Below the pieces are notes generated by a model, which worked only from the letters and a program-made list of their open reading frames with translations, ran no database searches and was not told where the DNA came from. Shown piece by piece: positions 1-54,323 of a DNA stretch of 64,000 nt. The stretch is from Candidatus Moranbacteria bacterium RIFCSPHIGHO2_01_FULL_55_24. Its GTDB lineage: Bacteria > Patescibacteriota > Minisyncoccia > Moranbacterales > UBA1568. Made by a program: the position numbers and the translations under genes. Every line of letters begins with the position of its first letter. Within the stretch, counting starts at the first letter, position 1. The stretch spans positions 22,179 through 86,178 of the forward strand of contig MFRW01000001.1 in NCBI GenBank assembly GCA_001786575.1, given 5' to 3'.

Positions 1-861
1 TTCCATCCGCTTGCGGTAAAGATCGCCTTCGTCTTCGTGCTCGTCGGGTACGGGACCAAAGTCGGCCTCGCACCGCTCCACGCCTGGCTCCCGGATGCCC
101 ACAGCAAGGCGCCTTCGCCTATTTCCGCGCTCCTCTCGGGAGTGCTTCTGAATGTCGCCCTCTTCGCAGTGCTCCGCTTCAAGGGAGTGGCGGACCTCGC
201 TTTGGGAGACGCAGTGTTTACGGGACAGCTCCTTATCTTCTTCGGAATGCTTTCGCTCGCCATCGCTTCGCTCATCATCTTCGTCCAGAAGAACTACAAG
301 CGTCTGCTTGCCTATTCGAGCATCGAGCACATGGGCATCATGGCGCTCGGTTTCGGCTTCGGGGGGCTCGGCGCCTATGCGGCGCTTCTCCACATGCTCT
401 ACCACGCGCTGGCGAAGTCGCTCCTCTTCCTCTCGGCAGGAAATATCTTTCTCCGCTACAGTTCGACCAAACTCAAGAACATTTCCGGCGTCCTCTCGGC
501 GCTTCCGGTGACTGGCGTCCTCTTCTTCGGGGGATTCCTCATGATCGCCGGCATGCCGCCGTTCGGCATCTTCACGAGCAAGTTCCTGCTTCTCTCTGCC
601 GGCATCGGCGCGCATCCTTGGGTGACGGGAGTAGCACTCTTCCTGATCGCTCTCGTGTTTTTCGGATTCTTCAAGCATGTGACCGCTCTCGCTTTCGGCA
701 AGCCGGCCGAAACGATCGAGATCGGCGAGAGCCGCAACCCGCTGACCATTCTGCCGCTCGTGGCGCTTGCGCTCCTCATCGTTTTCCTCTCCTGGCGTTT
801 CCCGGCATCGCTCGAAATGCTCATCCGGCTCGCCGCGGAGCAGCTCATCCTCAATTCATAG
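1..861 (+). CDS. NuoL/M/N-family proton-translocating membrane subunit (complex I / Mrp antiporter / hydrogenase-4 type), 5' truncated by window edge
   Basis: Frame 1 is open from nt 1. Motif GLAPLHAWLPDAHSKAPSPISALLSG is typical of NuoN/NuoM/MnhD. Several hydrophobic helices follow. Confidence 0.75.
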   Translation, partial: FHPLAVKIAFVFVLVGYGTKVGLAPLHAWLPDAHSKAPSPISALLSGVLLNVALFAVLRFKGVADLALGDAVFTGQLLIFFGMLSLAIASLIIFVQKNYKRLLAYSSIEHMGIMALGFGFGGLGAYAALLHMLYHALAKSLLFLSAGNIFLRYSSTKLKNISGVLSALPVTGVLFFGGFLMIAGMPPFGIFTSKFLLLSAGIGAHPWVTGVALFLIALVFFGFFKHVTALAFGKPAETIEIGESRNPLTILPLVALALLIVFLSWRFPASLEMLIRLAAEQLILNS

Positions 862-871
862 GTCCACGCAT

Positions 872-2461
872 ATGACAGACATCGCCCACATCGTTTCGCG
901 CTACGGGATCGCCGGATACCCGGGACAGCTTTCCGGGAATACCTATGCCTTTCCGGTTCCTGAAGGGGACCTGGTTTCCGTCATAGAGAATCTGAAGGGT
1001 ATCCACGGCTTGCCGCTCAAGACGGTCGCAGCGACGGATGAGCGCGAGACGCATGGGACGTTCCGCATCTACTATGTTTTCGGCATCCCGAAAGAAGGGA
1101 TTTTCCTGGTGCCGTACTTGAACGTCGACAAGTACACCCAGGTGTTCCCGTCGCTGACGCCCTTGTATCATGAGTTTTCCGCGTACGAGAAAGAGATCAA
1201 GTCCTTCTTCGGCCTGCTTCCAGCCGGGCATCCGGATGCCAAGCGCGTCATTCTCCATAGCGAGACGTTCCCGAAGAACTTGTACCCGCTTCTCAAGGAC
1301 TTCGCCTGGGATAGCAAGACCACCCTTTCCGAAGAAGAACGCGAATGGCCGGAGTTCCAGACCTATGCCGGAGAAGGCGTGTATGAGATTCCGGTAGGGC
1401 CGGTCCATGCCGGCATCATCGAGCCAGGCCACTTCCGCTTCAGCATGCTCGGGGAAGAGATGCTCCGCCTCGAGCCGCGTCTCGGCTATGTCCATAAGGG
1501 GACCGAGAAGCTCTTCGAGCACCTGCCGATGGAGGACAAGCTCAAGCTTTCCGAACGCATTTCCGGCGACAGTTCCTTCCATCACGCGCTCGCTTGGAGC
1601 CAGGCGGTTGAGACGCTTGCCGGGGTGACGGTATCTGAAAAGGCGCGCATCCTCCGGGTAGTGTATGCGGAACTGGAGCGCCTGGCCAACCACTTCAATG
1701 ACCTGGCCTTCATCATGCTCGACACGGGCTTCAGTTTCGGCGGTTCGCACGGGACCAGGATCCGGGAACGCATCCTCCAGTGGAACGAGAAGCTTTCCGG
1801 CAGCCGTTTCCTGCGCGGGGTGGTCATGCCCGGCGGCGTGACGAAAGACATCTCTACCGAAACGATCGACGAGCTCCAGAATGATCTCGATGTCATAGAG
1901 AAAGACTTTTCCGAAGTGATCGAAGTCGCCGAAGAGACCGTATCCGTGCTCAATCGTTTGAAGACTACCGGTATCTTGGACCGGGACGTCGCAGAAGACC
2001 ACGGCGCGCTCGGCGTGGCTGCCCGGGCCGTAGGGCTCGGCCTCGATGCCCGCGCGGATTACCCGTACGCCGAATATCAGAATATCCAGTTCTCGGTGCC
2101 GACCGAAGAGACCGGAGACGTGTACGCCCGCTATCGGATCCGTGTCCGCGAGGCGCACCAGTCATTCCGCATCCTGCATCAGGCGCTGACGATGGCGCTC
2201 CATGCCGAAGGACCGCTTGCTCTCGAGCTCCCGTCCCTGCCCGCCGATAGTCAGGCCGTCGGTATCGTCGAGGGTTTCCGCGGCGATATCGTGTACTTCG
2301 TGAAGACCGACCAGCAAGGCAAGATCACCCGGGTGAAGGTCCGCGACACCTCGTTCATCAACTGGACGGTCTTCCCGTATATCGTCAGCCGCGATGTCAT
2401 CCCGGACTTCCCGCTCATCAACAAGAGCTTCAATCTCTCCTATACTGGAAACGATCTCTAG
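872..2461 (+). CDS. Fused NuoC-NuoD-like / group-4 [NiFe]-hydrogenase large-subunit homologue lacking Ni-ligating cysteines (Ehr-type)
   Basis: ATG at 872 is in frame with ORF 767..2461. N-terminal NuoC-like region then NuoD/HycE-like core (GPVHAGIIEPGHFRF, LEPRLGYVHKG). The position of the RxCGxC motif reads ERISGDSSFHH. The C-terminal DPCxxCxxH position reads RDTSFINWTVFP. Confidence 0.8.
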   Translation: MTDIAHIVSRYGIAGYPGQLSGNTYAFPVPEGDLVSVIENLKGIHGLPLKTVAATDERETHGTFRIYYVFGIPKEGIFLVPYLNVDKYTQVFPSLTPLYHEFSAYEKEIKSFFGLLPAGHPDAKRVILHSETFPKNLYPLLKDFAWDSKTTLSEEEREWPEFQTYAGEGVYEIPVGPVHAGIIEPGHFRFSMLGEEMLRLEPRLGYVHKGTEKLFEHLPMEDKLKLSERISGDSSFHHALAWSQAVETLAGVTVSEKARILRVVYAELERLANHFNDLAFIMLDTGFSFGGSHGTRIRERILQWNEKLSGSRFLRGVVMPGGVTKDISTETIDELQNDLDVIEKDFSEVIEVAEETVSVLNRLKTTGILDRDVAEDHGALGVAARAVGLGLDARADYPYAEYQNIQFSVPTEETGDVYARYRIRVREAHQSFRILHQALTMALHAEGPLALELPSLPADSQAVGIVEGFRGDIVYFVKTDQQGKITRVKVRDTSFINWTVFPYIVSRDVIPDFPLINKSFNLSYTGNDL

Positions 2462-9189: not shown

Positions 9190-9981
9190 TTACTTCCCCT
9201 GATTGATTTCCTTCTCTATGTCTTCCATGTCTCTCACCCAAGAATTGAGAAGAGAAGACCGACCGGTCTTTTCTTCTTCCGAGGCGTTGTGGAATGTCAT
9301 GGCAGAACCGCCCTGGCCTTCTTCGGAATTGTCGGAAATATCCAGATCTTTCTTCCAGCTGTTCACGACACTGTTCGATTCCGCGGCTTTTTGGAATTCA
9401 CCCTGCCAATCCTTGTGAGCGCCCTTCTGGATGATGTTCTCTATGGCGGCCCAGGAGGCGTCGAGGTCGCGCGGAAGGACAACGGCTACCTCGTCTCCCG
9501 GGATAGCCTTGAAGTAGGTGATGGAAGCGAGCAGGATGCGGTACGGCTTGCCGTTCGCGAGGACGTAATAGTTCCCGTTCTCGTCCTGGGTGACGATCCC
9601 GATCGCATGGCGCCGCTCGATGGGGCCGATCTGCTTGTAGAGGAAGGTGCCATCGGGAGTGATGGTGAGCTTCAGCATATCGCCCTCGACCAGCTTGGAT
9701 TTCGAGGCGTAATTGGCCGGAACAGGGTATTGCTTGCCATCGGTGCCGGTCATCAGCTGGCCGTCGAAAGTGCCTTCGACCACAGTGCCGTCTTCAGGGC
9801 TGCCGACCTCTGTTTTGCGCGGCCGGCCTGTCTTTTTCTTGCCTTCCAACTGGAGGAGCATGGCCTTGGCGCCCTGGATAGTCTTTTCGGCGTTCAAGAC
9901 CATATCGCGGAGGGCCTGGATTTTCATGGCGCGGTCCGCTTCGTTCGGAGGTTCTTCGTCGTGGGGGTTTATTTTTGTCAT
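9190..9981 (-). CDS. Hypothetical protein (AT-hook-like GRPRK motif)
   Basis: ORF 9190..10179; the internal ATG at 9981 (MTKINPHDEEPP...) is the likely start. No recognisable domain. Confidence 0.45.
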   Translation of the reverse strand: MTKINPHDEEPPNEADRAMKIQALRDMVLNAEKTIQGAKAMLLQLEGKKKTGRPRKTEVGSPEDGTVVEGTFDGQLMTGTDGKQYPVPANYASKSKLVEGDMLKLTITPDGTFLYKQIGPIERRHAIGIVTQDENGNYYVLANGKPYRILLASITYFKAIPGDEVAVVLPRDLDASWAAIENIIQKGAHKDWQGEFQKAAESNSVVNSWKKDLDISDNSEEGQGGSAMTFHNASEEEKTGRSSLLNSWVRDMEDIEKEINQGK

Positions 9982-10127
9982 AACTTTTATTTTGGGGCGC
10001 AGAACCTGGTTCTGCTTTTCATGTCTATTATAAATGGGGGAGGATTTCTTGACAAGCAACGCAAGAAGTTTTCTGATGATGATTTCCGGGAGAAAGTGCC
10101 GCTTTTTTCCGGGGAAGGCCCAGACTC

Positions 10128-10157
10128 TTGACAAAAATACAGAACGTGCGTTAATAT
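10128..10157 (+). promoter_or_regulatory. Sigma70-type promoter (TTGACA-N18-TAATAT)
   Basis: Consensus -35 TTGACA at 10128-10133 and -10 TAATAT at 10152-10157, about 45 nt upstream of the ATG at 10204. Confidence 0.55.
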
Positions 10158-10203
10158 AAGTTGATTCCTTCGGGAGCATTATTCATCTAAATAGACAGCT
10201 TGT

Positions 10204-11271
10204 ATGGCAGGAAAGAACATCGCTTCCGAAACCAATCAGGGTGTACGGAAAGTATCATTTCAGAACTCTCTGGAACAGTTCCTTATGGGACTGCCTGAAC
10301 GCTCGCGCGCGATCGTCGCGGCCCGCTTCGGCATCGGAGCGGAGTCTGCAAAGACGCTTGAGGAGATCGGCAAGTTCTACGGGATCACCCGGGAGCGCGT
10401 ACGCCAGGTTATCTGCAGCGCTGTCGCCCAGCTCGCGCAGGCGCTCGAGAAGGACAAGGAATTCGCTTCTGCCGTAGGGCGTATCGAATCGACACTGGAA
10501 AAGAGAAATGGTATCATGCAGGCAGAGGACCTGATCCGCGAACTCTCTTCTGGTGATACGAATGAAGCCGGACCGCTCCATGCCTTCCTTGAATCGCTCC
10601 GCTCCGTAAAGTGCGAGAAGGCGACCAAGGATCATGAGAAGCTGTACCGCTTGGAAAGCTTTTCACTGGAGACTTGGAAGCGTGTGAAGGAAGCCGCGAA
10701 AAAAATCCTGGCAGAAGCCGGTGAAACCCTTTCCGACAAAGACCTCTACGCACGTTTCAAAAAAATCTCCCAAGATGACCTTTCCCAGGAGCAGTTCTTC
10801 GATTTCCTGGCTGTTGCCAAGGACGTCAAGCAGAACGTTTTCGGGAAATGGGGACTCACGACGTGGAGCGATATCAAGCCGCGCGGTACCCGCGAGAAGG
10901 CTTACCTCGTCCTGAAGACCTCTAAGAAGCCGCTCCATTTCCGTGAGATCGCCGATCTGATCGATCAGCACGGCCTGCACGGCAAAAAGAAACGGAGTCA
11001 TCCGCAGACGGTACATAACGAGCTTATCAAGGACAAGCGTTTCGTTCTGGTCGGCCGCGGTATCTATGCCCTCTCCGAATGGGGGTACAAGAAGGGGACC
11101 GTGAAGGAAGTCATCGAGGAGATTCTGAAGGCTGCCAAGAAGCCGCTCTCGCGCGAAGAGATTCTCGCCGAGGTGCTCAAGGTGCGCCAAGTAAAAAAAA
11201 CAACCATCATCATCAATCTGAATTCTTTTTTCAGCCGGGTCGGTAAAGACGCCTACTGGCTCAAGAAGTAG
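10204..11271 (+). CDS. Sigma-70 region-4-like HTH protein with C-terminal HARE-HTH domain
   Basis: Region LPERSRAIVAARFGIGAESAKTLEEIGKFYGITRERVRQV resembles sigma70 region 4. The C-terminal region (KKPLHFREIADLI...GRGIYALSEWGY...KKPLSREEI) resembles HARE-HTH / RpoE-delta N-terminal domain. Confidence 0.55.
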   Translation: MAGKNIASETNQGVRKVSFQNSLEQFLMGLPERSRAIVAARFGIGAESAKTLEEIGKFYGITRERVRQVICSAVAQLAQALEKDKEFASAVGRIESTLEKRNGIMQAEDLIRELSSGDTNEAGPLHAFLESLRSVKCEKATKDHEKLYRLESFSLETWKRVKEAAKKILAEAGETLSDKDLYARFKKISQDDLSQEQFFDFLAVAKDVKQNVFGKWGLTTWSDIKPRGTREKAYLVLKTSKKPLHFREIADLIDQHGLHGKKKRSHPQTVHNELIKDKRFVLVGRGIYALSEWGYKKGTVKEVIEEILKAAKKPLSREEILAEVLKVRQVKKTTIIINLNSFFSRVGKDAYWLKK

Positions 11272-11334: not shown

Positions 11335-12639
11335 ATGAGTATTTTATTTGAAAGCCTGGCAAACGCATTTTCTTTTTTCGGCAACATGTTTTCTGTTGCT
11401 GCTGATCTGTGGTTCGTCCTCTTTCCTCCGGCCCTCTACGCCGTTTTCAAGATTCTCTGGCTCCCGCACGTGTGGGGGCATTACGGTTCCAAGATCAAAT
11501 GGGTGCTCTTGGAGATCATCCCGCCTCGCGATATCGAGGCGAGCCCGCTTCCGATGGAGTCGATCTTCGCTGGCCTTGCCGGCGTAAGCAAGGGTTCGAC
11601 GATAGCAGAAGAGTGGGTCAAGGGTGAATTCCCGACAGCCTTCTCTCTGGAAATCGTGAGCCAGGAGGGCAATGTGCATTTCTATATCCGCACCCAGACC
11701 GCCTTCCGCAACCTCGTGGAGGCGCATTTCTACGCCCAGTATCCGAATGTCGAAATCGTCGAAGCCGACGACTACGTGAACACCGTGCCGCGCACCCTGC
11801 CGAACAAGGACTGGGATCTGTGGGGTACGGATTTTGAATTGGTGAAGCCCGACCTCTATCCCATCAGGACTTACAAATACTTCGAAGAATCCGTGACCGG
11901 CAAGATGATCGATCCCTTGGCCGGTCTCATAGAGACTATGGGCAAAGCGGGTCCCGGCCAGCATATGTGGCTCCAGTTCATCATCGCTCCGGAAAAGGAG
12001 AAATGGTACGCGACTGGCAAGGCGACGGTCGATGAGTTCCTGGGAAAGAAGAAGAGCGAAAAGCACGGAGTCTTTATTCGTCTTCTGATCGATCTCAAGG
12101 ATATTTTCACGAATATTTTTTCCGGTATGCTCGGGAAAGAAATGACGCATACTGTTCTTGAAGAAGAAAAGACAGATGAAAACGGCGTTCCGATCGAGTC
12201 GAAGCTCACTTTCGGGCAGCGCGAAGTCCTGAAGGCGCTGGAAGAAAATCTCGGCAGGATCATGTTCAAGACCAAGATGCGCTACCTCTATGTGGGCCGG
12301 CGCGAAACCTTCAACAAGCCGACCGGCGTTTCCGCTCTCATCGGCGGCATCAAGCAGTTCAATGACCAGAATCTGAATAGTTTCAAGCCGAATGATGATA
12401 CCAAGACCGATGCCAAGTATCTCTTCGTCGAGCCGCGCCTCCGCTACCGCCAACGCCGCATTTTCCGCCGCTACGTGAGCCGCGATTCGGATCCGCAGTT
12501 CAACCGTTTCGAGTTGAGCACGACAGAGCTCGCAACGATTTTCCATATCCCGGATATGTCCGTGGTGGCTCCGTCGCTCACGCGTGTGGCTGCGAAGCGC
12601 GGAGGTGCCCCGTCGAACCTGCCGATCCAGAGCGAATAA
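11335..12639 (+). CDS. Membrane protein (N-terminal 2 TM) with large soluble domain, partner of the downstream T4CP-like ATPase
   Basis: 434 aa. Hydrophobic N-terminus FFGNMFSVAADLWFVLFPPALYAVFKILWL. No recognisable catalytic motif. 33-nt spacer to the next gene on the same strand. Confidence 0.55.
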   Translation: MSILFESLANAFSFFGNMFSVAADLWFVLFPPALYAVFKILWLPHVWGHYGSKIKWVLLEIIPPRDIEASPLPMESIFAGLAGVSKGSTIAEEWVKGEFPTAFSLEIVSQEGNVHFYIRTQTAFRNLVEAHFYAQYPNVEIVEADDYVNTVPRTLPNKDWDLWGTDFELVKPDLYPIRTYKYFEESVTGKMIDPLAGLIETMGKAGPGQHMWLQFIIAPEKEKWYATGKATVDEFLGKKKSEKHGVFIRLLIDLKDIFTNIFSGMLGKEMTHTVLEEEKTDENGVPIESKLTFGQREVLKALEENLGRIMFKTKMRYLYVGRRETFNKPTGVSALIGGIKQFNDQNLNSFKPNDDTKTDAKYLFVEPRLRYRQRRIFRRYVSRDSDPQFNRFELSTTELATIFHIPDMSVVAPSLTRVAAKRGGAPSNLPIQSE

Positions 12640-12672
12640 TCACAAGAATACACATTCACATTTTCTTTTCCT

Positions 12673-14631
12673 ATGCACGCTTCCCCGCAAAACGAAATCG
12701 CTTTTTTCGCCAAGACGAACTTCCGTAACCAGGATCGCGTTTTCGGTATCAAGTTGGATGACCGGCGCCGGCACATGTACGTGATCGGAAAGACCGGCAT
12801 GGGCAAGACCAATCTTTTGGAAAACCTGGCGATCCAGGATATCCAGAACGGGCACGGTATCGCCTTCATCGATCCGCACGGAGACACGGCGGAAAAGCTC
12901 ATCAAGGCTATCCCGTCTTCGCGCATCAACGATGTCATCTATTTCAATCCGGCCGATCAGGACTTTCCGATCGCGTTCAATGTGATGGAGAAAGTGGATC
13001 CCGAATACCGTCATCTGGTCGCCTCCGGCCTGGTCGGAGTCTTCAAGAAGCTCTGGGCGGAATCCTGGGGACCGCGTCTCGAATACATCCTGCGCAATGA
13101 CATCATCGCCCTTCTCGAGTATCCCGGAAGCACGCTCCTCGGCGTGACGCGCATCCTCGTCGACAAATCCTACCGCGAACGGGTGGTAGAGAAGATCACC
13201 GACCCGGTGGTACGCAGCTTCTGGGTGGATGAATTCACCAAGTGGAACGAGCGCGTGCTCCAGGAAGTCATTTCTCCGATTCAGAACAAAGTAGGTCAGT
13301 TCCTCTCGAGCTCGCTTATCAGAAATATCGTCGGCCAGACGGCATCTTCTTTCGATGTGCGCAAAGTCATGGATGAGAAGAAGATTCTCATCATGAACCT
13401 CTCGAAGGGCCGCATCGGCGAGGACAACAGCGCGCTTCTTGGCGCTATGATGATCACCAAGATCCAGCTGGCCGCCATGAGCCGCGTAGATATCCCGGAG
13501 GAGACCCGTAACGATTTCTACCTCTACGTCGATGAGTTCCAGAACTTCGCTACCGAATCGTTCGCGAACATCCTGTCCGAGGCCCGCAAGTACCACCTGA
13601 ACCTCATTCTTGCGAACCAGTATGTGAGCCAGATCGACGAGAAAGTGCGCGATGCGATCTTCGGAAATGCCGGTACGATCATCTCGTTCCGCGTGGGAGC
13701 GATGGATGCGGAGTTTTTGGAGAAGGAATTCGAGCCGGTCTTTATGGCGAACGATATCATCAATCTTCCCAAGTATCAGATCTACCTCAAGCTCATGATC
13801 GACGGTATCGCAGGAGACGCCTTCAGCGCGACGACGCTTCCGCCGATCAAGCTGGAAGACGCCGGGAATGAAGACAAGATCATCCAGGGTTCGCGCGAAC
13901 GCTATGCCTCGAAGAAGGATGATGTCGAAGATAAGATCCGCCGCTGGAGCGGCATGCTGACAGCCGAAGAGCGCCAAGCGCTTATCAAGCCGGTGAATGC
14001 GCCTCGGAGAGAAGCGCCAGTTATCACGAGGAAAGCCCCTCCGAAACCAGCGCCGGTCTCGAAGAAGGAACAGGTGCCGCGTGCGGAAGCTCCTCGAGCT
14101 CCTCAAGCCGCAGAAGTCCTCGCAGAAAGACCGCGAGAAGAAGCGGAGCTGCCTCCTCTGGAAGAGGAGAAAAAGCCGGCAGAAGTGCCGGCGGAGATAG
14201 AGGAAGTGCCTGAAGAGGAACCTGGAGCAGAAGCTGCCGTCCCTCGTACCCTGTACGATACGGTCTGTGCCACGTGCGGCACGCCTATCCAGGTACCATT
14301 CAAGCCGGATGGCAAGCGCCCGACATTCTGCAAGGATTGCCTGCGGGATTACCAGCGCGCCACCGCCAAGGCCCGTCTCGAAGAAGAACGGAAGCACGGA
14401 GCGGGCGAAGGCCAGGGGATAAGGACCGGACAACGGAACTCTATAAAAGAGCAGCCGGAACGCCGACTGGAGCGCAGGGTGTATGCTACGGATGAGAGGC
14501 CGGTTTCTCTCGCCCAAGTGCAGCATATCGGCCCCAAGAAATTCAAGAGTCTGCGAAAGCGCCCGGAAGTGAACCTTTCCGAGCTCCGCGAGCTCATCCA
14601 CACGACGCAGAAAAAGAATGGAGAAAGCTGA
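12673..14631 (+). CDS. VirD4/TraD/TraG (type IV coupling protein)-like P-loop ATPase, soluble, with Pro/Glu-rich linker and C-terminal 4-Cys zinc ribbon
   Basis: Walker A VIGKTGMGKTNLL followed by IDPHGD (T4CP DPKGE-like). Motif YFNPADQDFPIAFNV. Walker B FYLYVDEFQNF. Sensor ARKYHLNLILANQ. Tail EEAELPPLEEEKKPAEVPAEIEEVPEEEPGAEAA then CATCG...VPFKPDGKRPTFCKDC. Confidence 0.65.
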   Translation: MHASPQNEIAFFAKTNFRNQDRVFGIKLDDRRRHMYVIGKTGMGKTNLLENLAIQDIQNGHGIAFIDPHGDTAEKLIKAIPSSRINDVIYFNPADQDFPIAFNVMEKVDPEYRHLVASGLVGVFKKLWAESWGPRLEYILRNDIIALLEYPGSTLLGVTRILVDKSYRERVVEKITDPVVRSFWVDEFTKWNERVLQEVISPIQNKVGQFLSSSLIRNIVGQTASSFDVRKVMDEKKILIMNLSKGRIGEDNSALLGAMMITKIQLAAMSRVDIPEETRNDFYLYVDEFQNFATESFANILSEARKYHLNLILANQYVSQIDEKVRDAIFGNAGTIISFRVGAMDAEFLEKEFEPVFMANDIINLPKYQIYLKLMIDGIAGDAFSATTLPPIKLEDAGNEDKIIQGSRERYASKKDDVEDKIRRWSGMLTAEERQALIKPVNAPRREAPVITRKAPPKPAPVSKKEQVPRAEAPRAPQAAEVLAERPREEAELPPLEEEKKPAEVPAEIEEVPEEEPGAEAAVPRTLYDTVCATCGTPIQVPFKPDGKRPTFCKDCLRDYQRATAKARLEEERKHGAGEGQGIRTGQRNSIKEQPERRLERRVYATDERPVSLAQVQHIGPKKFKSLRKRPEVNLSELRELIHTTQKKNGES

Positions 14632-14673
14632 AAGAAACGCCCGTAGTTGTTCGGAGTGGCCGGTTTTGGTATC

Positions 14674-14793
14674 ATGGAGGATATGAGTTTCAGAAAATGG
14701 CACAAACGAGCCTACACCTTCTGGGTAGGGATCTCTATTCTCGTGGTGGTTTCCATGGTGGCGTTCCTTTTCGCGCCGTTCTTTATGTACTAG
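14674..14793 (+). CDS. Possible small membrane protein (36-39 aa)
   Basis: ORF MEDMSFRKWHKRAYTFWVGISILVVVSMVAFLFAPFFMY immediately upstream of the ftsB-like gene. One TM helix. Not in the ORF track because shorter than 60 aa. Confidence 0.3.
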   Translation: MEDMSFRKWHKRAYTFWVGISILVVVSMVAFLFAPFFMY

Positions 14794-14799
14794 GAGCCT

Positions 14800-15189
14800 A
14801 TGAAGCCCAAAGACTGGTACATGCGCCTCTTCGTAGCAGGCCTTCTGGTCCTGATCGGCTGGGCGCTCTATGTGTCTTCCAAACAGCTGGAGAGGAATAA
14901 GCGGATCGCACAGGAAGTGAACACGCTCCAGGAAGAGGCGGAAAAGATCAGGAAGGAAAACGAGACGCTTTCGGAGAGGATCGGGTACTTCTCTTCGCAG
15001 GAATTCCGCGAACAGGAAGCCAAGAAGAAATTGGGTCTGAAGAAGCCGCAAGAGACAGTCGTAGCGATCAAAGAAGAGGTTCCGGAGGAGCAGGGACAAG
15101 ACGCGGTTTCCGAGTCTCCGAAGGAGGCATCCAAGAGTCCGTCGGAAATTTATATGAAATGGTGGCAGCTTTTTTTCGCAAAAAACTAA
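14800..15189 (+). CDS. Septum formation initiator (FtsB/DivIC-like)
   Basis: N-terminal TM (LFVAGLLVLIGWALYV) followed by coiled coil LERNKRIAQEVNTLQEEAEKIRKENETL. GGAG RBS upstream. Confidence 0.55.
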   Translation: MKPKDWYMRLFVAGLLVLIGWALYVSSKQLERNKRIAQEVNTLQEEAEKIRKENETLSERIGYFSSQEFREQEAKKKLGLKKPQETVVAIKEEVPEEQGQDAVSESPKEASKSPSEIYMKWWQLFFAKN

Positions 15190-15208
15190 CTTCTCAAACG
15201 TCAAATGT

Positions 15209-16273
15209 ATGGACATAAAGAAGGATGTCTTGCAGAAGGTCAAAGTGAAATGGGAAACGGCGGCATACGCGCTTCTTGCGGTCGTCGTCTTCGTATTCGC
15301 GGCGAGCCTCATCGCTGTGTACGCGGTACCGCGCGGCACCTATCCGCTTATCGAACGCTTCTCCAAAGCGACTCCATACCCGGTTTCGATCGTCGGCATG
15401 AAAAACTTCATCAGCGAGCGCGAGCTTTCCGGAAATATGCGCTCTATCCGACGTTTCTATGAAGCCCAGGATTTCTCGCAGATCGGGCTACGGGTAGACT
15501 TTTCGACCGAAGAAGGCCAGAAACGCTTCCGTATCCGCGAGAAAGAAGTCCTAAACAAGATGATCGAAGACGCCGCGGTAGTGGAGATCGGCAAGAAGTA
15601 CGGTATCACTATCACCCAAGAGATGGCTCGCGAGGGCGTGCGCCGCTCGCTCGACGAATACGGCAACAGCGATACTGTGAAACAGGATTTGGAACGCCTC
15701 TACGGGTGGAGCTTGAGTGATTTCGAAGAGAAGATCGTATTGCCGAGCCTGTATGAAGAGAAACTCCAAGAAGTGTTCGCCAAGGAAAACGAAGCTTCAG
15801 ACGTCGCGAAGGAAAAGATCCAGAAAGCCGACCAGGCGCTGCGGGACGGCAAGCCTTTCCGGGAAGTAGCGATCGAATATTCGGACGGACAGACCAAGGA
15901 GAAAGGCGGGGAGCTGGGATGGTTCCAGATTTCAGATCTGACTCCCGAACTCCAGAAGCCGGTATCGATCCAGAAAGTCGGTGCTCCGGGGAGCATTATC
16001 GAAAGCGCTCTCGGGTACCATATCGTCATAATCGAAGAGACGAAAAGCGAAGACGGGGAGATGTTCTATCGCTTGAGTCAGGTATTCGCCCGCAAAGCTA
16101 CCTTTGCAGATTGGATGACAGAGAAGATGAAGGGCGTGTCGATTTTCGTCCTGTCTCCGGAATACCGCTGGAATGCCGAAGAAGCGCGGGCCGAATTCAG
16201 GCGCCAGGAGATGCGAGAGTTTGAGGAGGAAGTCTACAAGAATACGAACGGCGATGCCCTTTTTTTCTTCTAG
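15209..16273 (+). CDS. Peptidyl-prolyl cis-trans isomerase, parvulin type (PrsA/SurA-like), membrane-anchored
   Basis: N-terminal TM, chaperone-like region, then parvulin domain (FREVAIEYSDGQTKEKGGELGWFQ ... GYHIVII). Confidence 0.75.
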   Translation: MDIKKDVLQKVKVKWETAAYALLAVVVFVFAASLIAVYAVPRGTYPLIERFSKATPYPVSIVGMKNFISERELSGNMRSIRRFYEAQDFSQIGLRVDFSTEEGQKRFRIREKEVLNKMIEDAAVVEIGKKYGITITQEMAREGVRRSLDEYGNSDTVKQDLERLYGWSLSDFEEKIVLPSLYEEKLQEVFAKENEASDVAKEKIQKADQALRDGKPFREVAIEYSDGQTKEKGGELGWFQISDLTPELQKPVSIQKVGAPGSIIESALGYHIVIIEETKSEDGEMFYRLSQVFARKATFADWMTEKMKGVSIFVLSPEYRWNAEEARAEFRRQEMREFEEEVYKNTNGDALFFF

Positions 16274-16356: not shown

Positions 16357-16410
16357 TTTTTTATTTTCATGATATTTTTCAAGTGGAAAAAATATCGAAA
16401 TATTTTGAGT

Positions 16411-19050
16411 ATGAATATCAATAAATTCACTACCAAGTCGCAGGAAGCCCTGCGCATGTCACAGGAGATCGCTTTGTCGCGGAGCAATCCGCAGATGGAC
16501 ACGGCGCATCTTCTCTACGCGCTCCTCTTGCAGGAAGAATCCATCGTCCCGGTAATCGTGGGCAAGCTGGATGTCGATATCGAGGACATCAAGGGAGCGA
16601 CGCTTACGGAGATCGAGTCCTTTCCGCAGGCAGAGTCGGGAGCGGTCGGCCAGCTGTATCTTTCGCAGGCCCTGGCCCAGGCGTTCGGCGAAGCGGAGAA
16701 GCAGATGGAGAAGATCGGCGACAGTTTCGTATCGACGGAGCATCTGCTCCTGGCGCTTCTTTCAGTGCCGAGCAAGGTACAGAAGATCCTGGAAGAAGCG
16801 GGCATCAGCTATGACCGAACGCTTCAGATCATGACCGAAGTGCGCGGCGGGCAGAGAGTGGAAAGCCAGGCGCCCGAAGCGACGTATCAGGCTCTCGAAA
16901 AATACGCAATCAACCTGACCAAGGAAGCGCGCGAAGAGAAGCTCGACCCGGTAATCGGACGCGACGAGGAGATCCGCCGGGTGATGCAGGTGCTTTCGCG
17001 CCGTACCAAGAATAACCCGGTCTTGATCGGAGAGGCCGGGACCGGAAAGACGGCTATCGCCGAAGGTCTGGCCCAGCGCATCGTTTCCGGAGATGTGCCG
17101 GAAAATCTGAAGAACAAGGAGATCATCGCGCTCGATCTGGGAGCGCTCCTCGCTGGGGCGAAGTTCCGCGGCGAGTTCGAAGAGCGCCTCAAGGCGATTC
17201 TGAAGGAAGTGGAACGCGCCGCAGACCGTTTCATCCTCTTCATCGACGAGCTCCACACGCTCGTCGGAGCGGGAGCGACTGAAGGGTCGCTCGACGCGTC
17301 GAATATGCTGAAGCCGGCACTCGCGCGCGGCAAGCTGCGCACGATCGGCGCGACCACGCTCAAGGAATACCAGAAATATATCGAGAAAGACGCGGCGCTC
17401 GAACGCCGCTTCCAGCCCGTCTACGTCTCCGAGCCGTCCGAAGAGGATGCGATCGCCATCCTGCGCGGCATCAAGGAGAAATATGAGCTCCATCACGGCG
17501 TCAAGATCACGGATGACGCGCTCATCGCAGCCGTCAAGATGTCGCGGCGCTATATCACCGACCGCTTCTTGCCGGACAAAGCAATCGACCTCATCGACGA
17601 GGCAGCATCGCTCCGCCGCATGGAGATCGATTCGCTTCCGACCGAGCTGGACCAGCTGGAACGCAATATCCGCCGCATGGAAATCGAGAAACGGGCGCTC
17701 GAGAAAGATAGCGACAAGGGCAGTAAGGCGAAGATCAACGCTCTGGAGCGCGAGCTTTCCGAATTGAAAGAGCGTTCCAAGAAATTGATGCTCCAATGGA
17801 AGTCCGAGCGCGATCTCATCATGGCGATCCGGAAGCATAAGGAGGAGATAGACCGGTTCCGTTCAGAGGCGGAAATGGCCGAGCGTCGGGGCGAATTGGA
17901 TCAGGTCGCCGAGATCCGCTACGGGAAGATCCCGAATCTGGAAAAGGAAATCAGTACAGAGGAGAAAAAAATGGCTCGGCTCCAGAAGACGAGTTTTCTC
18001 TTGAAGGAGGAGATCGCTGAAGAGGATATCGCACAAGTGGTTTCCCGCTGGACAGGTATCCCAGTCGCGAAGATGCTCGAGAAAGAGACCGAAAAACTCG
18101 TCCATTTGGAGGCAGAATTGAAGAAACGAGTGGTCGGGCAGGATGAAGCGATTCATGCGATCGCGAATGCTATCCGCCGCTCCCGTGCCGGCCTCTCGGA
18201 AGAGACGCGGCCGATCGGATCCTTCATCTTCCTCGGGACGACCGGCGTCGGGAAGACCGAACTCGCCAAGGCTTTGGCCGAGGTGCTTTTCGACGATGAG
18301 AAATCGCTGGTACGGGTGGATATGAGCGAGTACATGGAATCGCATTCGACGGCGAAGCTCATCGGTTCGCCGCCGGGATACGTGGGTTATGAGGAGGGTG
18401 GGCAGCTGACCGAGACGATCCGGCGCCGCCCATACAGCGTGATCCTCTTCGATGAGATCGAGAAGGCTCATCCGGATGTCTTCCATATCTTCCTTCAGAT
18501 TCTGGACGACGGCCGCCTGACGGATGCCAAGGGACGGACAGTGAACTTCAAGAATACCGTCATCATCATGACTTCCAATGTCGGATCGGAAATCCTCGTA
18601 CGTTCCCGGGACCTGGGATTCAAGGAAGAGAGCAGGAAGAATGTTGCCTTGCGCGAGACCGAGATCCGCGAGCGGATCGAAGGGGCTCTCCGCGAGACGT
18701 TCCGCCCGGAATTCTTGAACCGTATCGATGAGACGATCATCTTCCATCCGCTCTCGCCGGAAGTGCTTTCCGGGATCGTGGATCTTCAGATCGAGATTCT
18801 GAAAAAGCGTTTCGAAGAGCGGGAAATCTCCATTACCTTCGAGCCGAGCGCGAAGCGGTACTTGGCCAAGCAGGGCTATGATCCCCTCTATGGCGCCCGG
18901 CCGCTCAAGCGGGTCATCCAGAACGAAGTGCTCGATCCGCTCGCGCTTGAAATTTTGGAGAAAAAGGTTCAAAGTGGGGATAGCGTCCGTGTCACTCTCG
19001 CGAAAGGCAAGCTGATTTTCAAGAGCGAAAAGAAAGGCCGGACCCGCTAA
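16411..19050 (+). CDS. clpB: ATP-dependent chaperone ClpB
   Basis: N-domain, D1 ([15 protein letters not shown]; FILFIDELH), long coiled-coil middle domain, D2 ([15 protein letters not shown]; [10 protein letters not shown]; sensor 2 GARPLKR). Start moved to the ATG at 16411 (MNINKFT). Confidence 0.9.
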
Positions 19051-28181: not shown

Positions 28182-28295
28182 CGTTCACGGTGAAACCAGA
28201 CGGTTTCTCCTTGCAACGAAAGCGGAAACATGGTTTGCCAAGCGGGACCCGAGGCTTTAAAATGGAAAAAAGGCAGACCAACCACTTTTCATCGT

Positions 28296-30749
28296 ATGAA
28301 TGATTCTTTTTTTCTGTGGTATTACACGCGCGGATTGTCTGGCGCGCCTTTTGTGCTTTGGAATTATCTGCGCTACACGCTCCACCGCTTCAATATCCTC
28401 GGATTGCTCGGGACGCTGGTATCGCCTTGGAAGCGCGATGTGACCCCGCGGACCTGGAGAGGTTGGCATCCGCTGAAATCCTTGAACCGCTTGGTCGAGA
28501 ATCTCCTCTCGCGCTTTTTAGGTATGCTGGTGCGTCTCGGGGTCATTGTCTTCGGGATTACCGTATTCTTGCTGGTTCTCTTCGGCGGTACGCTCCTTCT
28601 TTTCGGATATGCGCTCGCCCCGCTTTTCCTGGTGACAGGATTGATAACTCTGGGAGCCGATATTCTCTGGGGAGCCGGGTTGCTTCTTTTGGGAATCGCC
28701 GGCATAGCTTTCGGTTTCTTCGGCTATCAGGCACGGGAGCGCGAGGAGCCGGCGGATTTCTCTCTCGCCAGCCTGCGGCATTCCCGGTCTTTCCCGAGAA
28801 TCTTGGCGCGTCTGGGCCTGAAGAAAGGATTTTTCGACGAAGGAATACTTGAGAACGATGAGCGCTTTATGGAATTCCTGCAGTCCCTGGGTATCTCGCG
28901 CCTCACGTTCGAGCGTTCGGTGCTGATAGAGCGCCATCGGGAACAAGAAGAGAGGCTTCGGGCGCGCTTCTGGTCATGGGACCGCCTCGAGAAAGCACCT
29001 CGCCTCGGCAGGACGTGGAAGTTCGGGTACACGCCGAAGCTCGACCGCTATGTGACGGATCTTTCGCAGGGAGATTTTTCCGAATATGCCCATGCCGAGC
29101 TGGTGGGCCGGACCGATGAACTGAAGGTCGCCGGAGTGATCTTGGAGCGGCCGACAGAAAACAGTCTTATCCTCGTGGGAGATCCCGGTATCGGAAAACA
29201 GACATTCATCCATTACTTCGCGCGCCTCATCCGCGAGAACGCTTTCAGAGGGACATTTTTCGATGATTCACGCGTCCTGCTTTTCGACTTCGGGCGTGCC
29301 GTGGGCGATGCGACGACTCAAGGCAGCGATCCGGAGAATTTCTTGCGATACCTCTTGAGCGAAGCGGTGATGGCCGGGAATATCATCCTCGTGATCGAGA
29401 ACGTCGACCTTTTCATGGGCGGTGAGGAGACGGGTCGCCATAATTTCGCGCCGCTTCTCGGTGAGTTCCTCATCTATCCCGGATTCCGGGTGATCGGGAC
29501 CGCTTCTGCTTCCGCCTACCATGCGCTCATGAAGCATGATGAACACTCTCTCAAATATTTCGAAGCCGTGTATATGCGTGAGACCGATGCTGATGAGACG
29601 CTCGGTATCCTTATCGATGAATTCAAAGAGGTCGAAAAGAAACAGATCGTATTCACAATGAAGGGCTTCGAGCAGATTGTGGAGAACGCTGACCGCTACA
29701 ATTGGGAAACGCCGTTTCCCGAGCGTGCTCTCGACTTGGCGCACGAAGTCCTGACCTATTGGCGGACGACTGACGAGAGCTTCATCACCGAGGCTACGGT
29801 AGACGCTTTCATCGCGCTCAAGACCGGGATACCGCAGGGCGCTGTCGGAGAAGAGGAAAAGGACAAGCTTTTGCGCCTGGAAGAACTGCTCCATGAACGG
29901 GTTGTCGGCCAGGACACGGCGGTCACCCGGGTAGCGGAAGCCATGCGTAAGGCGCGCGCCGGATTCGGCAATGAGAAGCGCCCGCTCGGGAGCTTTCTCT
30001 TCTTAGGGCCGACCGGTGTCGGGAAGACCGAAACCGCGAAGGCATTCGCCGAGAGTTACTTCGGAAGTGAGGATCGCATGATCCGGCTGGACATGAGCGA
30101 GTTTCAGACGGCAGAGTCCATCGACCGCCTGATCGGCTCGCAGGAAAAGGGACTGACGGGCGAACTGACGAACGCTCTCCAGGAGAACCCCTTCTCGCTC
30201 CTCCTCCTCGACGAAATCGAGAAAGCCTATCCGCAGGCGCTCGACCTTTTCCTGCAGATTCTCGATGAAGGATACGTGAACGACGGATTCGGGAAGAAGG
30301 TCAGTTTCCGGAGCGCCGTCATCATCGCCACTTCCAACGCCGGTGCGCCGCTTCTGAAACAGCTCATAGAGGCGGGAACGCCCCAGGAAGAGATCGAGAA
30401 GCGCATGATCGATGAGGTCGTGAACCGGGGCATTTTCCGTCTGGAGTTCCTCAACCGTTTCGACGGAGTCGTCTTCTTCTCGCCGCTTCAGGAACAAGAG
30501 CTTCTCGAGGTCGTCGGTCTCAAGCTCCGCGACCTCCAAGCGCGTCTCAAGAAAGAGAAGAATATCGCGCTTCAGTTCGGCGAAGGCGTCCCGGAGGCGA
30601 TTGTCGCGAAGGGATACAGGCCCGAGTTCGGCGCCCGCTCGCTCAATCGTTTCATCAATGATACGATTGAGGACCGTGTTGCCAAAGCCATTATTTCCGG
30701 CGAACTGGCAAATGGAGGGACGCTCACCCTTACTCCGAATGACCTGTGA
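28296..30749 (+). CDS. Membrane-anchored ClpA/B/C-like double AAA+ protein with degenerate D1 (Walker A GKQ, Walker B EN) and intact D2
   Basis: N-terminal 190 aa with about 3 TM helices. D1: LILVGDPGIGKQTFI and IILVIENVD (versus ClpB GEAGTGKT / FIDELH). D2: FLGPTGVGKTETAKAFAE, LLLLDEIEKAYP, sensor ATSN, GARSLNRFI. No long M-domain and no IGF/L loop. ATG at 28296 in ORF 28230..30749. Confidence 0.75.
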   Translation: MNDSFFLWYYTRGLSGAPFVLWNYLRYTLHRFNILGLLGTLVSPWKRDVTPRTWRGWHPLKSLNRLVENLLSRFLGMLVRLGVIVFGITVFLLVLFGGTLLLFGYALAPLFLVTGLITLGADILWGAGLLLLGIAGIAFGFFGYQAREREEPADFSLASLRHSRSFPRILARLGLKKGFFDEGILENDERFMEFLQSLGISRLTFERSVLIERHREQEERLRARFWSWDRLEKAPRLGRTWKFGYTPKLDRYVTDLSQGDFSEYAHAELVGRTDELKVAGVILERPTENSLILVGDPGIGKQTFIHYFARLIRENAFRGTFFDDSRVLLFDFGRAVGDATTQGSDPENFLRYLLSEAVMAGNIILVIENVDLFMGGEETGRHNFAPLLGEFLIYPGFRVIGTASASAYHALMKHDEHSLKYFEAVYMRETDADETLGILIDEFKEVEKKQIVFTMKGFEQIVENADRYNWETPFPERALDLAHEVLTYWRTTDESFITEATVDAFIALKTGIPQGAVGEEEKDKLLRLEELLHERVVGQDTAVTRVAEAMRKARAGFGNEKRPLGSFLFLGPTGVGKTETAKAFAESYFGSEDRMIRLDMSEFQTAESIDRLIGSQEKGLTGELTNALQENPFSLLLLDEIEKAYPQALDLFLQILDEGYVNDGFGKKVSFRSAVIIATSNAGAPLLKQLIEAGTPQEEIEKRMIDEVVNRGIFRLEFLNRFDGVVFFSPLQEQELLEVVGLKLRDLQARLKKEKNIALQFGEGVPEAIVAKGYRPEFGARSLNRFINDTIEDRVAKAIISGELANGGTLTLTPNDL

Positions 30750-42199: not shown

Positions 42200-43876
42200 A
42201 TGAGACAACAGATCAAAATTCGCTGGCAATTCGCCGGAGTACTCCTTCTTGGCCTTGTTTCAGGCCTGATTGCCTACCCGGAGTCCGTCCGTTTCGCTGC
42301 TCCTATCCATGAATTCTTCTCGCAATTCAAGGTGAATCAGGGACTCGACCTTCAGGGCGGGATCCATTTGGAATACGCGGCCGACGTCTCCGCGCTTCCG
42401 AGCGACAAAGCGGATGAAGCGCTGGCGGCTGCCGAAGCGGTCATCGAGCGCCGTGTGAATGCCTTCGGCGTCGGCGAGCCTCTGGTACAGCTGGCCCGGT
42501 CCGGCACCGAGCACCGCATCATCGTCGAGCTTCCAGGCATCAAAGACATCGAGCAAGCCAAGAAGATGATCAAGGAAACGCCGTTCTTGGAATTCCGCGA
42601 GCCGGCCGGCGAGGAAGTGCAGAAAGAGATCGATACAGCGAACGAGGCAGCCAAGGGAAAGGCGGCGGTTCTGCTTGCGCGTGCCAAGGCCGGTGAAGAC
42701 TTCGCGACCATGGCCAAGCAGTCGAGCGAAGACCCGGGATCCAAAGACAACGGCGGAGACCTGGATTTCGTGAAGCAGGGGATGTTCGTCCCGCAATTCG
42801 ACGAGGTGATTTTCAAGCCGGACTTCAAGGCCGGCACGGTCTATCCGGAATTGGTCGAGAGCGATTTCGGATGGCATATCATAAAGAAACTCGAGGAGCG
42901 GGGCGAGGGCGATAACCGCGAAGTGCGCGCCGCGCATATCCTTCTCTTGAAGCGTTCGTTGAACGACAGTCCGCTCTTGGCCTATCAGCCGACGGGGCTT
43001 TCCGGCAAGCATCTGAAAGACGCCTATGTGGACTATCAGACCCAGGGTCTCGGCTCGCCGCAGATCGCACTCCAATTCGATGACGAGGGGACGAAGCTTT
43101 TCGCCGAAATCACCAAGCGAAACATCGGCAAGCCGGTAGCGATCTTCCTCGACGGGGAAATCATCAGTCAGCCGACGGTCCAGAACGAGATCGTCGCCGG
43201 CCAGGCAGTGATCACCGGAAACTTCACGCTGCCGGAAGCCAACGAGCTGGTGCGCCGCCTGAATGAAGGCGCGCTGCCGGTGCCGATCACACTCGTCTCG
43301 CAGCAGAGCGTCGACGCTTCCCTAGGAGAAAGCGCTCTCCGGCAGAGCTTGTTCGCCGGACTCGTCGGGCTCGCGGCAGTGGCGATCTTCATGGTTTTCT
43401 ACTATCGTTTTCTCGGAGTGATCGCGGTTCTGGCACTCCTCCTCTACACGGCGATGCTTCTCGCCATCTTCAAGCTTTCCGCTTTCACGCCATTCTCTAT
43501 CACTGTGACGCTTTCGGGTATCGCCGGGTTCGTCCTCTCGATCGGTATCGCCGTGGATGCGAACGTGCTCATCTTCGAGCGTACCCGCGAAGAGCTCTCC
43601 TATGGCAAGGGCGCGATCAAGTCGATCAAGGAAGGCTTCCGCCGCGCCTGGCCGAGCATCCGCGACGGCCACGTCTCGACGCTTCTCACGACGCTTATCT
43701 TGATCGGTTTCGGCACAGGCTTCGTCAAGGGCTTCGCGGTCATCCTCGCTTTGGGTGTGCTCCTCTCGCTCTTCACTGCCGTGGTCTTGGTGCGCATCAC
43801 GACGACGTTCTTCATCGGCGAATGGATGGAGAAACACCCATGGATCCTCGTCTCTCCCAAAAAGCCTCTGGAATAA
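42200..43876 (+). CDS. secD: Protein translocase subunit SecD with inserted parvulin-type PPIase module in the periplasmic P1 domain
   Basis: TM1, P1 head (GLDLQGGIHLEY ... VQLARSGTEHRIIVELPG), parvulin block EDFATMAKQSSEDPGSKDNGGDLDFVKQGMFVPQFDEV...FGWHIIKK followed by VRAAHILL, then canonical P1 base (AIFLDGEIISQPTVQNEIVAGQAVITG; GALPVP) and TM2-6. Confidence 0.8.
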   Translation: MRQQIKIRWQFAGVLLLGLVSGLIAYPESVRFAAPIHEFFSQFKVNQGLDLQGGIHLEYAADVSALPSDKADEALAAAEAVIERRVNAFGVGEPLVQLARSGTEHRIIVELPGIKDIEQAKKMIKETPFLEFREPAGEEVQKEIDTANEAAKGKAAVLLARAKAGEDFATMAKQSSEDPGSKDNGGDLDFVKQGMFVPQFDEVIFKPDFKAGTVYPELVESDFGWHIIKKLEERGEGDNREVRAAHILLLKRSLNDSPLLAYQPTGLSGKHLKDAYVDYQTQGLGSPQIALQFDDEGTKLFAEITKRNIGKPVAIFLDGEIISQPTVQNEIVAGQAVITGNFTLPEANELVRRLNEGALPVPITLVSQQSVDASLGESALRQSLFAGLVGLAAVAIFMVFYYRFLGVIAVLALLLYTAMLLAIFKLSAFTPFSITVTLSGIAGFVLSIGIAVDANVLIFERTREELSYGKGAIKSIKEGFRRAWPSIRDGHVSTLLTTLILIGFGTGFVKGFAVILALGVLLSLFTAVVLVRITTTFFIGEWMEKHPWILVSPKKPLE

Positions 43877-54236: not shown

Positions 54237-54262
54237 GCCAAAGACAGGAGAAAAGCTGAAAA

Positions 54263-54285: not shown

Positions 54286-54323
54286 CTTGATTAAAGATCC
54301 ATTGAAATGTTTACGATATAATA

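Follow-up and report, generated by a model that had tools for sequence, protein, structure and literature searches.

A two-gene module widespread in Patescibacteria is probably a split type IV coupling protein and may serve a secretion system encoded elsewhere

[quoted passage not shown] They differ from it in that the window ATPase has no transmembrane domain, scores far under the TraD and VirD4 equivalog cut-offs, has no relaxase or T4SS found linked to it, and belongs to a type whose core is 57-91% conserved across classes. Closer in architecture are T4CPs of ~800 amino acids (aa) from Streptomycetaceae (for example the Embleya plasmid protein WP_331738717 and proteins of Streptomyces sp. 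NBC_01431 and S. lydicus), in which a hydrophobic N-terminus, DUF8128 and a TrwB-type ATPase follow each other in the same order. Theirs is one polypeptide encoded in pilin-VirB6-VirB3-VirB4-T4CP-relaxase-like-hydrolase clusters with integrases, whereas the window form is divided between two genes, carries a zinc-ribbon tail, neighbours a gene for a sigma region 4/HARE-HTH (helix-turn-helix) protein, and has no T4SS genes detected nearby.

Dispersed T4CP homologues in Patescibacteria are already known from a survey of 3,035 genomes (Quinonero-Coronel et al. 2025, PMC12102498), which reports VirB4 in 2,417 genomes (80%) and 5,713 VirD4-type T4CPs in 2,918 genomes (96%), only 148 of them near virB4; its authors raise a possible exaptation of these T4CPs. 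The stand-alone T4CPs of that survey and SEML1_0293 of the saccharibacterium S. epibionticum (Wang et al. 2023, PMC10633639) represent the same phenomenon as the window pair, but the parts of the two accounts drawn on here do not describe a DUF8128 half, a fission, the synteny with an HTH gene or a zinc-ribbon tail. SEML1_0293 is moreover a single 921-aa protein, whereas the window form is split.

A preliminary description of the window, made from its letters by a model, had placed both open reading frames (ORFs) at 11335-14631 and had proposed the upstream protein as a split membrane anchor for the ATPase. The two ORFs lie where they had been placed, on the forward strand, and share a reading frame, with a stop codon and 33 nt between them. 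Their parts are as follows.

11335..12639, forward strand: DUF8128 gene, probable N-terminal half of a split T4CP, 434 aa (ORF; homologues with precomputed PF26449)
11347..11493, forward strand: hydrophobic N-terminal helix, probable membrane anchor, residues ~5-53 (hydropathy; predicted helix 2-53; Pro31)
12511..12624, forward strand: conserved C-terminal tail of DUF8128, ELSTTELATIFHIPDMSVVAPSLTRVAAKRGGAPSNLP, residues 393-430 (invariant columns; alignment to fused T4CPs)
12673..14631, forward strand: ATPase gene, probable C-terminal half of a split T4CP, 652 aa, a soluble VirD4/TrwB-type motor with a tail (ORF; Pfam, profiles)
12787..12810, forward strand: Walker A, GKTGMGKT, residues 39-46 (motif location; aligns to the Walker A of TrwB)
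13522..13620, forward strand: Walker B, LYVDEFQNF (residues 284-292), and RK...ANQ motif (residues 305-316), aligning to 'LFIDE...RKAGLRVVAGLQ' of TrwB
13990..14244, forward strand: Pro/Glu/Ala-rich low-complexity linker, residues 440-524 (composition)
14245..14346, forward strand: CxxC-x17-CxxC zinc ribbon, residues 525-558 (PF23477, TIGR04272)
14500..14598, forward strand: conserved C-terminal motif PVSLAQ...PKKFKSL...VNLSELRELI, residues 610-642 (conserved among homologues)

The two genes are very probably the halves of one full-length T4CP of a monoderm subfamily, because DUF8128 and the ATPase map in order onto one fused protein of Streptomycetaceae. Distant plasmid relatives of the ATPase core include an 812-aa Embleya T4CP. 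In a tblastn search with this protein, the match to the window begins at nt 12505, still within the 3' part of the DUF8128 gene, and passes the stop codon into the ATPase; in other loci, its residues ~186-392 aligned to DUF8128. In an hhalign comparison, the DUF8128 profile ran collinearly along the single Embleya sequence (columns 55-425 on residues 78-397, E 3.4e-4). Among homologues retrieved with this protein, 118 of 120 Streptomycetaceae T4CPs of ~800 aa combine PF26449 with PF10412 on a single polypeptide, DUF8128 being fused N-terminally to the ATPase. Profile-profile alignment against these fused T4CPs placed DUF8128 residues 10-423 on residues 32-388 (Prob 92.7%, E 4.3e-7), and residues 20-391 of the ATPase of the Candidate Phyla Radiation (CPR) on residues 402-775 (Prob 100%, E 6e-60, 32% identity). 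The order on the fused protein is collinear and the gene break corresponds to the inter-domain linker, which bears out the proposed split anchor.

PF26449 was absent from the 120 CPR ATPases listed, and none of the 150 partner representatives listed was fused or longer than 691 aa. Searching plasmids with DUF8128 by tblastn returned nothing, which is a false negative of sensitivity, as the Embleya plasmid T4CP does contain DUF8128. A 708-aa relative from Bradyrhizobium was considered as a further DUF8128-T4CP and rejected, its N-terminus not being DUF8128. On two Streptomyces chromosomes the fused form stands in the order T4SS_pilin (PF18895), VirB6-like gene (TrbL_3 in the fused-form cluster at locus L092), PrgI, VirB4, T4CP, Replic_Relax and SLT/NlpC_P60, and the core order PrgI - VirB4 - T4CP - relaxase-like - NlpC/P60 is repeated on the Embleya plasmid. 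Fused-form clusters carry integrases, and they have the pilin PF18895, PrgI/VirB3 and VirB4 in common with the T4SSs of Patescibacteria.

The second gene of the pair is, by its profile matches, a T4CP-type motor with Walker A and B intact. It exceeds the Pfam gathering scores of TrwB_AAD_bind (PF10412, 38.5 vs 20.5, aligned over residues 29-332) and TraG-D_C (PF12696, 27.6 vs 22), and both families were matched by 38 of 38 diverse orthologues, PF02534 by 30 of the 38. A profile of these orthologues ranked TrwB first among PDB sequences (8.5e-8), followed by DotL (7e-7) and, more distantly, HerA (2e-3), and VirB4 was not among the matches. The score against the VirB4/CagE profile TIGR00929 was 16 with a cut-off of 643. 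No match of the window ATPase to FtsK_SpoIIIE (PF01580) appeared in the Pfam scan, only 6 of the 38 orthologues matched that profile, weakly, and a DUF87 match was confined to the surroundings of the P-loop (residues 32-71; 24.9 bits). The ATPase had been described as T4CP-like, which these comparisons bear out over FtsK, HerA and VirB4. It nevertheless remained below the TraD/VirD4 equivalog cut-offs of NCBIfam (TIGR03743, 52.7 vs 366; TIGR03754, 39.4 vs 647.55; NF045973, 34.9 vs 250). Like its partner, the ATPase is no chance ORF, as its homologues number at least 8,000 hits.

All of the strings first noted in the ATPase could be located in its translation: YFNPADQDFPIAFNV at residues 90-104, Walker B, and the RK...ANQ motif, RKYHLNLILANQ, at residues 305-316. 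IDPHGD (residues 66-71) does follow Walker A, but 19 residues past it and not directly, as had been stated. The absence of an N-terminal transmembrane domain from the ATPase was likewise confirmed, with no transmembrane segment at a maximum hydropathy (KD19) of 1.29, and the hydrophobic segment of the pair sits on the DUF8128 protein instead. An AlphaFold2 (AF2) model of the ATPase was built on an alignment of 53 sequences, 70-76% identical overall and near-identical in the core. It contained a helical block at residues ~110-220 with a predicted local distance difference test (pLDDT) of 70-89, but was poor overall (pLDDT 54.7), since the ATPase core hardly varies among the aligned sequences, and it was left out of the fold search.

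The partner family was identified as Pfam DUF8128 (PF26449) from precomputed annotation of database homologues; the window protein itself had no match in the local Pfam copy. At 50% identity this large family falls into 1,780 clusters. The AF2 model is a confident one (pLDDT 88.8, predicted TM-score 0.84). Hydrophobicity is confined to the first ~50 residues, with a KD19 peak of 1.77 and values >1.6 in 41 of 60 family members, and the N-terminus is likely to be a membrane anchor. Of the two transmembrane helices originally described, a membrane segment as such is thereby made likely, but AF2 predicts a single long helix (residues 2-53) with a near-invariant Pro31. At the other end, the C-terminal tail contains five of the nine family-invariant columns (A400, H404, P406, P426 and P430). 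It is modelled with low confidence from residue ~404 in the isolated protein, and the segment aligned to it in fused T4CPs sits directly before the ATPase domain. Because it is conserved, poorly defined in isolation and abuts the motor in the fused protein, the tail may act as a docking or linker element to the ATPase.

Foldseek searches of the DUF8128 model against the PDB gave significant matches to TrwK/VirB4 chains of R388 only (E 9e-5 to 1e-2, probability 0.9-1.0), with TM-scores of just 0.31-0.36. The DUF8128 profile matched no PDB sequence, and hhalign comparisons with TrwK, pGO1 TrsD and TrsE were negative. Since sequence and profile comparisons failed to agree, the fold similarity is suggestive only of a VirB4 N-domain-like structure. 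The ATPase, by contrast, is of T4CP type and not of VirB4 type. A division comparable to that of the window pair is nevertheless found in VirB4 of CPR, which is itself encoded as a TrsD gene (PF11130, the N-domain) and an ATPase gene (Table S3, PMC12102498). An instance is Moranbacteria GW2011_GWD1_37_17, with VirB3, TrsD (PF11130) and VirB4 (PF19044, ~57% profile coverage) as genes 360-362 (PMC12102498). From these entries, Patescibacteria VirB4 appears to have been split in parallel to the fission into DUF8128 and ATPase.

Beyond the motor, the ATPase continues into a tail of three parts. The acidic/proline linker is present, but measures ~85 residues (62% E, P or A) instead of the ~120 first given; among homologues both its length and its sequence are hypervariable, and its AF2 pLDDT is <50. 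The C-terminal ribbon was confirmed as described, with four cysteines in 2-17-2 spacing at residues 532-556 (CATCGTPIQVPFKPDGKRPTFCKDC), scores above curated cut-offs (PF23477, zf_Tbcl_2, 46.1 vs 27; TIGR04272, 48.2 vs 36) and a pLDDT of 78-95. It is kept in 51 of 73 complete ATPase orthologues, and even ribbon-less orthologues retain a related 'V[DN]LxxLRxxLxE' helix or short C-terminal motifs. The CxxC-x17-CxxC domain binds zinc in small proteins of M. mazei (PMC12704099), zinc binding having been shown for archaeal members only.

Conservation of the locus was surveyed with one genome per species, which gave at least 587 genomes with DUF8128, the credible names among them being Patescibacteria throughout; for divergent DUF8128 proteins, the names of cluster members contributed no further taxonomy. 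The 80 best loci were analysed. The ATPase follows DUF8128 directly in 77 of these, with gaps mostly <100 nt, so that the pair is syntenic in relatives. Of the other three loci, one is cut off by a contig edge; the true exceptions are L029 and L038. In L038, DUF8128 is followed by a HicB-antitoxin-like small ORF (L038:3893-4144) and unrelated genes, which points to an insertion or a rearrangement there. Over 65 loci, the ATPase core has a median identity of 68.6% to its window counterpart, compared with 37.0% for DUF8128 and 37.5% for the protein encoded upstream, which belongs to the same gene row:

10204..11271, forward strand: sigma-region-4/HARE-HTH gene, 355 aa, probable first gene of the operon (Pfam; upstream synteny)
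10128..10157, forward strand: TTGACA-18-TAATAT, resembling a promoter, upstream of the HTH gene and possibly serving the operon (consensus scan)

This HTH protein carries sigma-70 region 4 at residues 27-77 (Sigma70_r4, 44.7 bits; best PDB matches of the N-terminus, RpoS/SigA region 4) and HARE-HTH at residues 231-293 (63 bits), and scores above the RNA polymerase delta equivalog cut-off (TIGR04567, 46.8 vs 42). Its gene stands directly upstream of DUF8128 in 71 of the 80 loci, and five of the nine misses are contig truncations. The neighbours had been taken for housekeeping genes, HTH gene and ftsB alike. The HTH gene turns out to be a conserved partner, also in a saccharibacterium, while ftsB is linked only in the closest Moraniibacteriota-type relatives (14 of 84 loci; L001-L014 except L008, L011 and L012). 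The neighbours PpiC, GtrA and dnaX are similarly conserved only in the closest Moraniibacteriota-type loci (L001-L014). The idea that the pair replaces FtsK was downgraded, as adjacency to ftsB is limited to the closest relatives; Saccharibacteria reportedly have ftsK. Consensus scans are compatible with a three-gene HTH-DUF8128-ATPase operon, the number of promoter-like sites in the region being not above chance expectation, which makes the site at 10128..10157 weak evidence.

The module is vertically inherited in Patescibacteria. Its HTH-to-T4CP order is found in Saccharimonadia, Paceibacteria and ABY1. The T4CP is split in Paceibacteria and ABY1 and apparently fused in Saccharimonadia; the fission would thus be class-specific, because the fused state occurs in Streptomycetaceae and, judging from protein length and domain positions, in Saccharimonadia. 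That the pair is a decaying, non-functional remnant of an integrated conjugative element could be argued from the relatives in such element-like clusters with integrases, and from a gene 'broken' into two ORFs of the same frame. However, the split is ancient, being shared by 77 of 80 genomes (one per species) whose spacers vary; the catalytic motifs are all intact and the ATPase core is near-invariant; and the chromosomal context is conserved, with typical GC content. No integrase or relaxase was seen in the Pfam-scanned ORFs, which covered the locus neighbours and the largest ORFs, the others having been assessed by eye only. Conservation effectively refutes this explanation, to which I give next to no credence. 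A viral origin was rejected as well, since a single 40-residue fragment matched in IMG/VR. The module is therefore not a mobile element, being nearly absent from viral contigs, with conserved chromosomal neighbours and a GC content that matches its surroundings.

No T4SS genes had been recognised at the locus, which held true in further searches. Using TrwK, TrsE, TrsD and an actinobacterial VirB4 as tblastn queries gave no match in the window, and no VirB4, TrsD or TrsE was found by tblastn in 84 related loci. Pfam scans of 17 window ORFs (seven around the locus and the 10 largest unassigned) showed no T4SS component, VirB6, relaxase, pilin or integrase, the other ORFs having been inspected by eye only; the scanned ORFs were housekeeping, envelope or unassigned, with 5 of the 17 lacking a family match. 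The pair had been read as a minimal stand-alone uptake device, in which two proteins alone form a DNA-scavenging membrane machine. This lack of channel and pilus genes in the window would fit such a device, and so would a faint NCBIfam similarity of the ATPase to the archaeal DNA-import equivalogs CedD (29.9 bits) and CedB (20.2 bits). These scores are, however, far under the cut-offs of 600 and 700, DUF8128 with at most one or two short hydrophobic helices provides no channel, and where the homologues are fused they function as part of complete T4SS clusters. A DNA-uptake role finds no support: S. epibionticum, the only relative that is tractable, depends on ComEC for transformation, and the positional orthologue of the T4CP is non-essential there (PMC10633639).

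The stand-alone status did not survive at the level of the lineage either. Table S3 of the survey lists Moranbacteria with VirB3-TrsD-VirB4(-VirB6) clusters and about two T4CP genes elsewhere (PMC12102498), that is, related Moranbacteria encode a T4SS without an adjacent T4CP, an arrangement that the preliminary description had itself named as a sign of ordinary dispersal. A minimal stand-alone uptake device is not needed for that reason, and I regard it as very improbable. Ordinary dispersal of a coupling protein is at least as likely as a self-sufficient two-gene device, because there is a T4SS elsewhere in Moranbacteria and only 148 of the 5,713 T4CPs of the phylum lie near virB4. In two loci, the DUF8128-linked T4CP has another T4CP paralogue directly downstream (L035:5644-6900 and L076:8349-9608), with 43-44% identity to the ATPase core of the window, which fits the figure of about two T4CPs per genome (PMC12102498).

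The chances that the pair is the coupling protein of its lineage's T4SS, engaged in an accessory transfer process, are near even or marginally below; this role is proposed because fused relatives sit in T4SS clusters and the lineage's T4SS has no T4CP in cis. The DUF8128 gene would supply the N-terminal hydrophobic anchor and an alpha/beta domain, and the second gene the VirD4/TrwB-type nucleotide-binding motor, extended by a disordered linker, the zinc ribbon and a short C-terminal helix. Through its conserved C-terminal tail, the DUF8128 protein would tether the soluble ATPase to the membrane, where the ATPase may assemble into the usual T4CP hexamer, while linker, ribbon and C-terminal helix could recruit a substrate or an adaptor. 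The pair would then act as substrate receptor and motor for a Patescibacteria T4SS encoded elsewhere, and the transfer of DNA or protein through that system would be accessory and non-essential. For the statement as a whole, a split T4CP including its coupling to a T4SS, the balance is even.

Genetic data that bear on this proposal come from S. epibionticum, whose T4SS cluster is essential and without a recognisable coupling protein (PMC10633639). There, SEML1_0294, the orthologue of the HTH protein and built like it (349 aa; Sigma70_r4 at 27-72, HARE-HTH at 225-283), is essential, and SEML1_0293 directly downstream has its TrwB domain from residue 402 and is non-essential, with reads going from 5817 to 1372 (PMC10633639). 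From its length, domain position and neighbour, SEML1_0293 is apparently a fused T4CP and the positional orthologue of the window pair. A different T4CP-like protein, SEML1_0142 (1019 aa, P-loop domain 381-800), is encoded upstream of gyrB/gyrA and after two small genes, of which SEML1_0141 scored as growth-defective initially and as essential at both later time points, and SEML1_0140 went from non-essential to growth-defective (PMC10633639).

Several observations weigh against a coupling role of the pair in the lineage's T4SS. The T4SS cluster of S. epibionticum is essential, yet SEML1_0293 is not, while the paralogue SEML1_0142 is essential (PMC10633639); SEML1_0142, and not the DUF8128-linked family, may thus be the partner of the T4SS, or may be vital for other reasons. 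Relaxases are almost absent from the phylum, with 109 in 3,035 genomes (PMC12102498), and no VirB4 was detected in the pair-bearing Portnoybacteria RBG_13_40_8, an incomplete metagenome-assembled genome (MAG). In conservation, the ATPase core greatly exceeds its partners (68.6% vs 37%), and the module is linked to an RNA-polymerase-like factor, both of which are atypical of conjugative T4CPs. Finally, the pairing of DUF8128 and ATPase is deduced from homology, collinearity and adjacency, and the putative all-alpha domain of the ATPase from profile alignment, the AF2 model of the ATPase being poor.

Many of the same data would suit an exapted, T4SS-independent translocase that, along with the sigma4/delta-like HTH protein, would have taken on a membrane-located task in DNA handling or at the chromosome. 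The HTH-to-T4CP order, which holds in 71 of 80 loci and extends to Saccharimonadia, an ATPase core 57-91% identical across classes at about twice the conservation of its partners, the zinc ribbon and conserved short motifs of the tail, and the position next to ftsB in close Moraniibacteriota-type loci are all in its favour. So are the near absence of T4CPs from the vicinity of virB4, along with the exaptation raised by the survey's authors (PMC12102498), and the dispensability of SEML1_0293 in a species with an essential T4SS (PMC10633639). By analogy, such a translocase could possibly pump double-stranded DNA in a sequence-directed manner as FtsK or Streptomyces TraB do, with the HTH protein or the zinc ribbon reading the DNA. 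FtsK/SpoIIIE and TraB are membrane-tethered hexameric motors of the superfamily paired with a DNA-reading HTH element, but the window ATPase chain has no gamma/wHTH domain and its N-terminal module is different. Against exaptation stands the essentiality of the HTH gene when the T4CP is not essential, which argues against a single shared function (PMC10633639). The ftsB linkage is limited to 14 of 84 loci, and the fused forms nearest to the pair are genuine parts of T4SSs. The prevalence of T4CPs (96%) over VirB4 (80%) was dismissed as a sign of T4SS independence, since two copies versus one at ~80% MAG completeness give the same difference. Taken together, I consider exaptation rather unlikely.

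The bolder form of that idea, a T4CP-derived motor kept across three classes as a core chromosomal module with a physical or regulatory tie to an essential sigma4/delta-type factor and working independently of a T4SS, is a shade less probable still. It would make the pair a domesticated conjugation motor with a new cellular role, for instance a sequence-directed DNA pump that exports or partitions DNA at the membrane of an epibiont, with the zinc-ribbon tail and the HTH protein selecting its substrate. With the split coupling protein as the preferred reading, a widespread 'orphan' T4CP would be a complete coupling protein, the anchor half of which had so far gone under the name of a domain without known function. 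DUF8128 gains a context, that of the N-terminal module in a monoderm subfamily of T4CPs, and the gene fission can be dated to within the phylum. A conserved link between the motor module and an essential sigma4/delta-like factor is exposed as well. In the portions of the literature searched, I found no account of DUF8128 as a T4CP N-terminal module, of the fission, the HTH linkage or the zinc-ribbon/short-motif tail, or of the strong conservation of the motor. The matter is of interest as, in the only lineage tested, epibiotic growth requires the Patescibacteria T4SS, whose cluster has no recognisable coupling protein (PMC10633639). SEML1_0293, SEML1_0294 and SEML1_0142 in the genetically tractable Saccharibacteria make the T4SS partner, the cargo and the conservation of the motor testable.

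Some further features were observed around the pair and elsewhere in the window. A large ORF of 899 aa antisense to the ATPase gene and ftsB (12640-15339, reverse strand) is a shadow ORF of GC-rich coding DNA, which a greedy longest-ORF map wrongly picks over the real ATPase gene. The gene at 9190-10179 (reverse strand, 329 aa) has no Pfam or NCBIfam match and is conserved beside the HTH gene in the closest Moraniibacteriota-type loci only; the annotated start is probably too far upstream, as homologues have ~250 aa. A fused Complex1_30kDa and Complex1_49kDa protein, NuoC/D-like or hydrogenase-like, is encoded at 767-2461 (forward strand); Patescibacteria genomes are usually without a respiratory chain. 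GC content drops to 0.42 at 54001-56000 and 0.38 at 62001-64000, compared with ~0.55 elsewhere, and these stretches may have been acquired; a radical-SAM-like CxxxCxxC opens the ORF at 54418-55500. SecD (42200-43876, forward strand) carries a PPIC-type rotamase domain (residues ~143-232) inserted between its SecD_1st and P1 head domains. In addition to a first ClpB at 16369-19050, a second ClpB-like AAA+ protein of 839 aa with AAA_2 and ClpB_D2-small domains is encoded at 28230-30749 on the forward strand.

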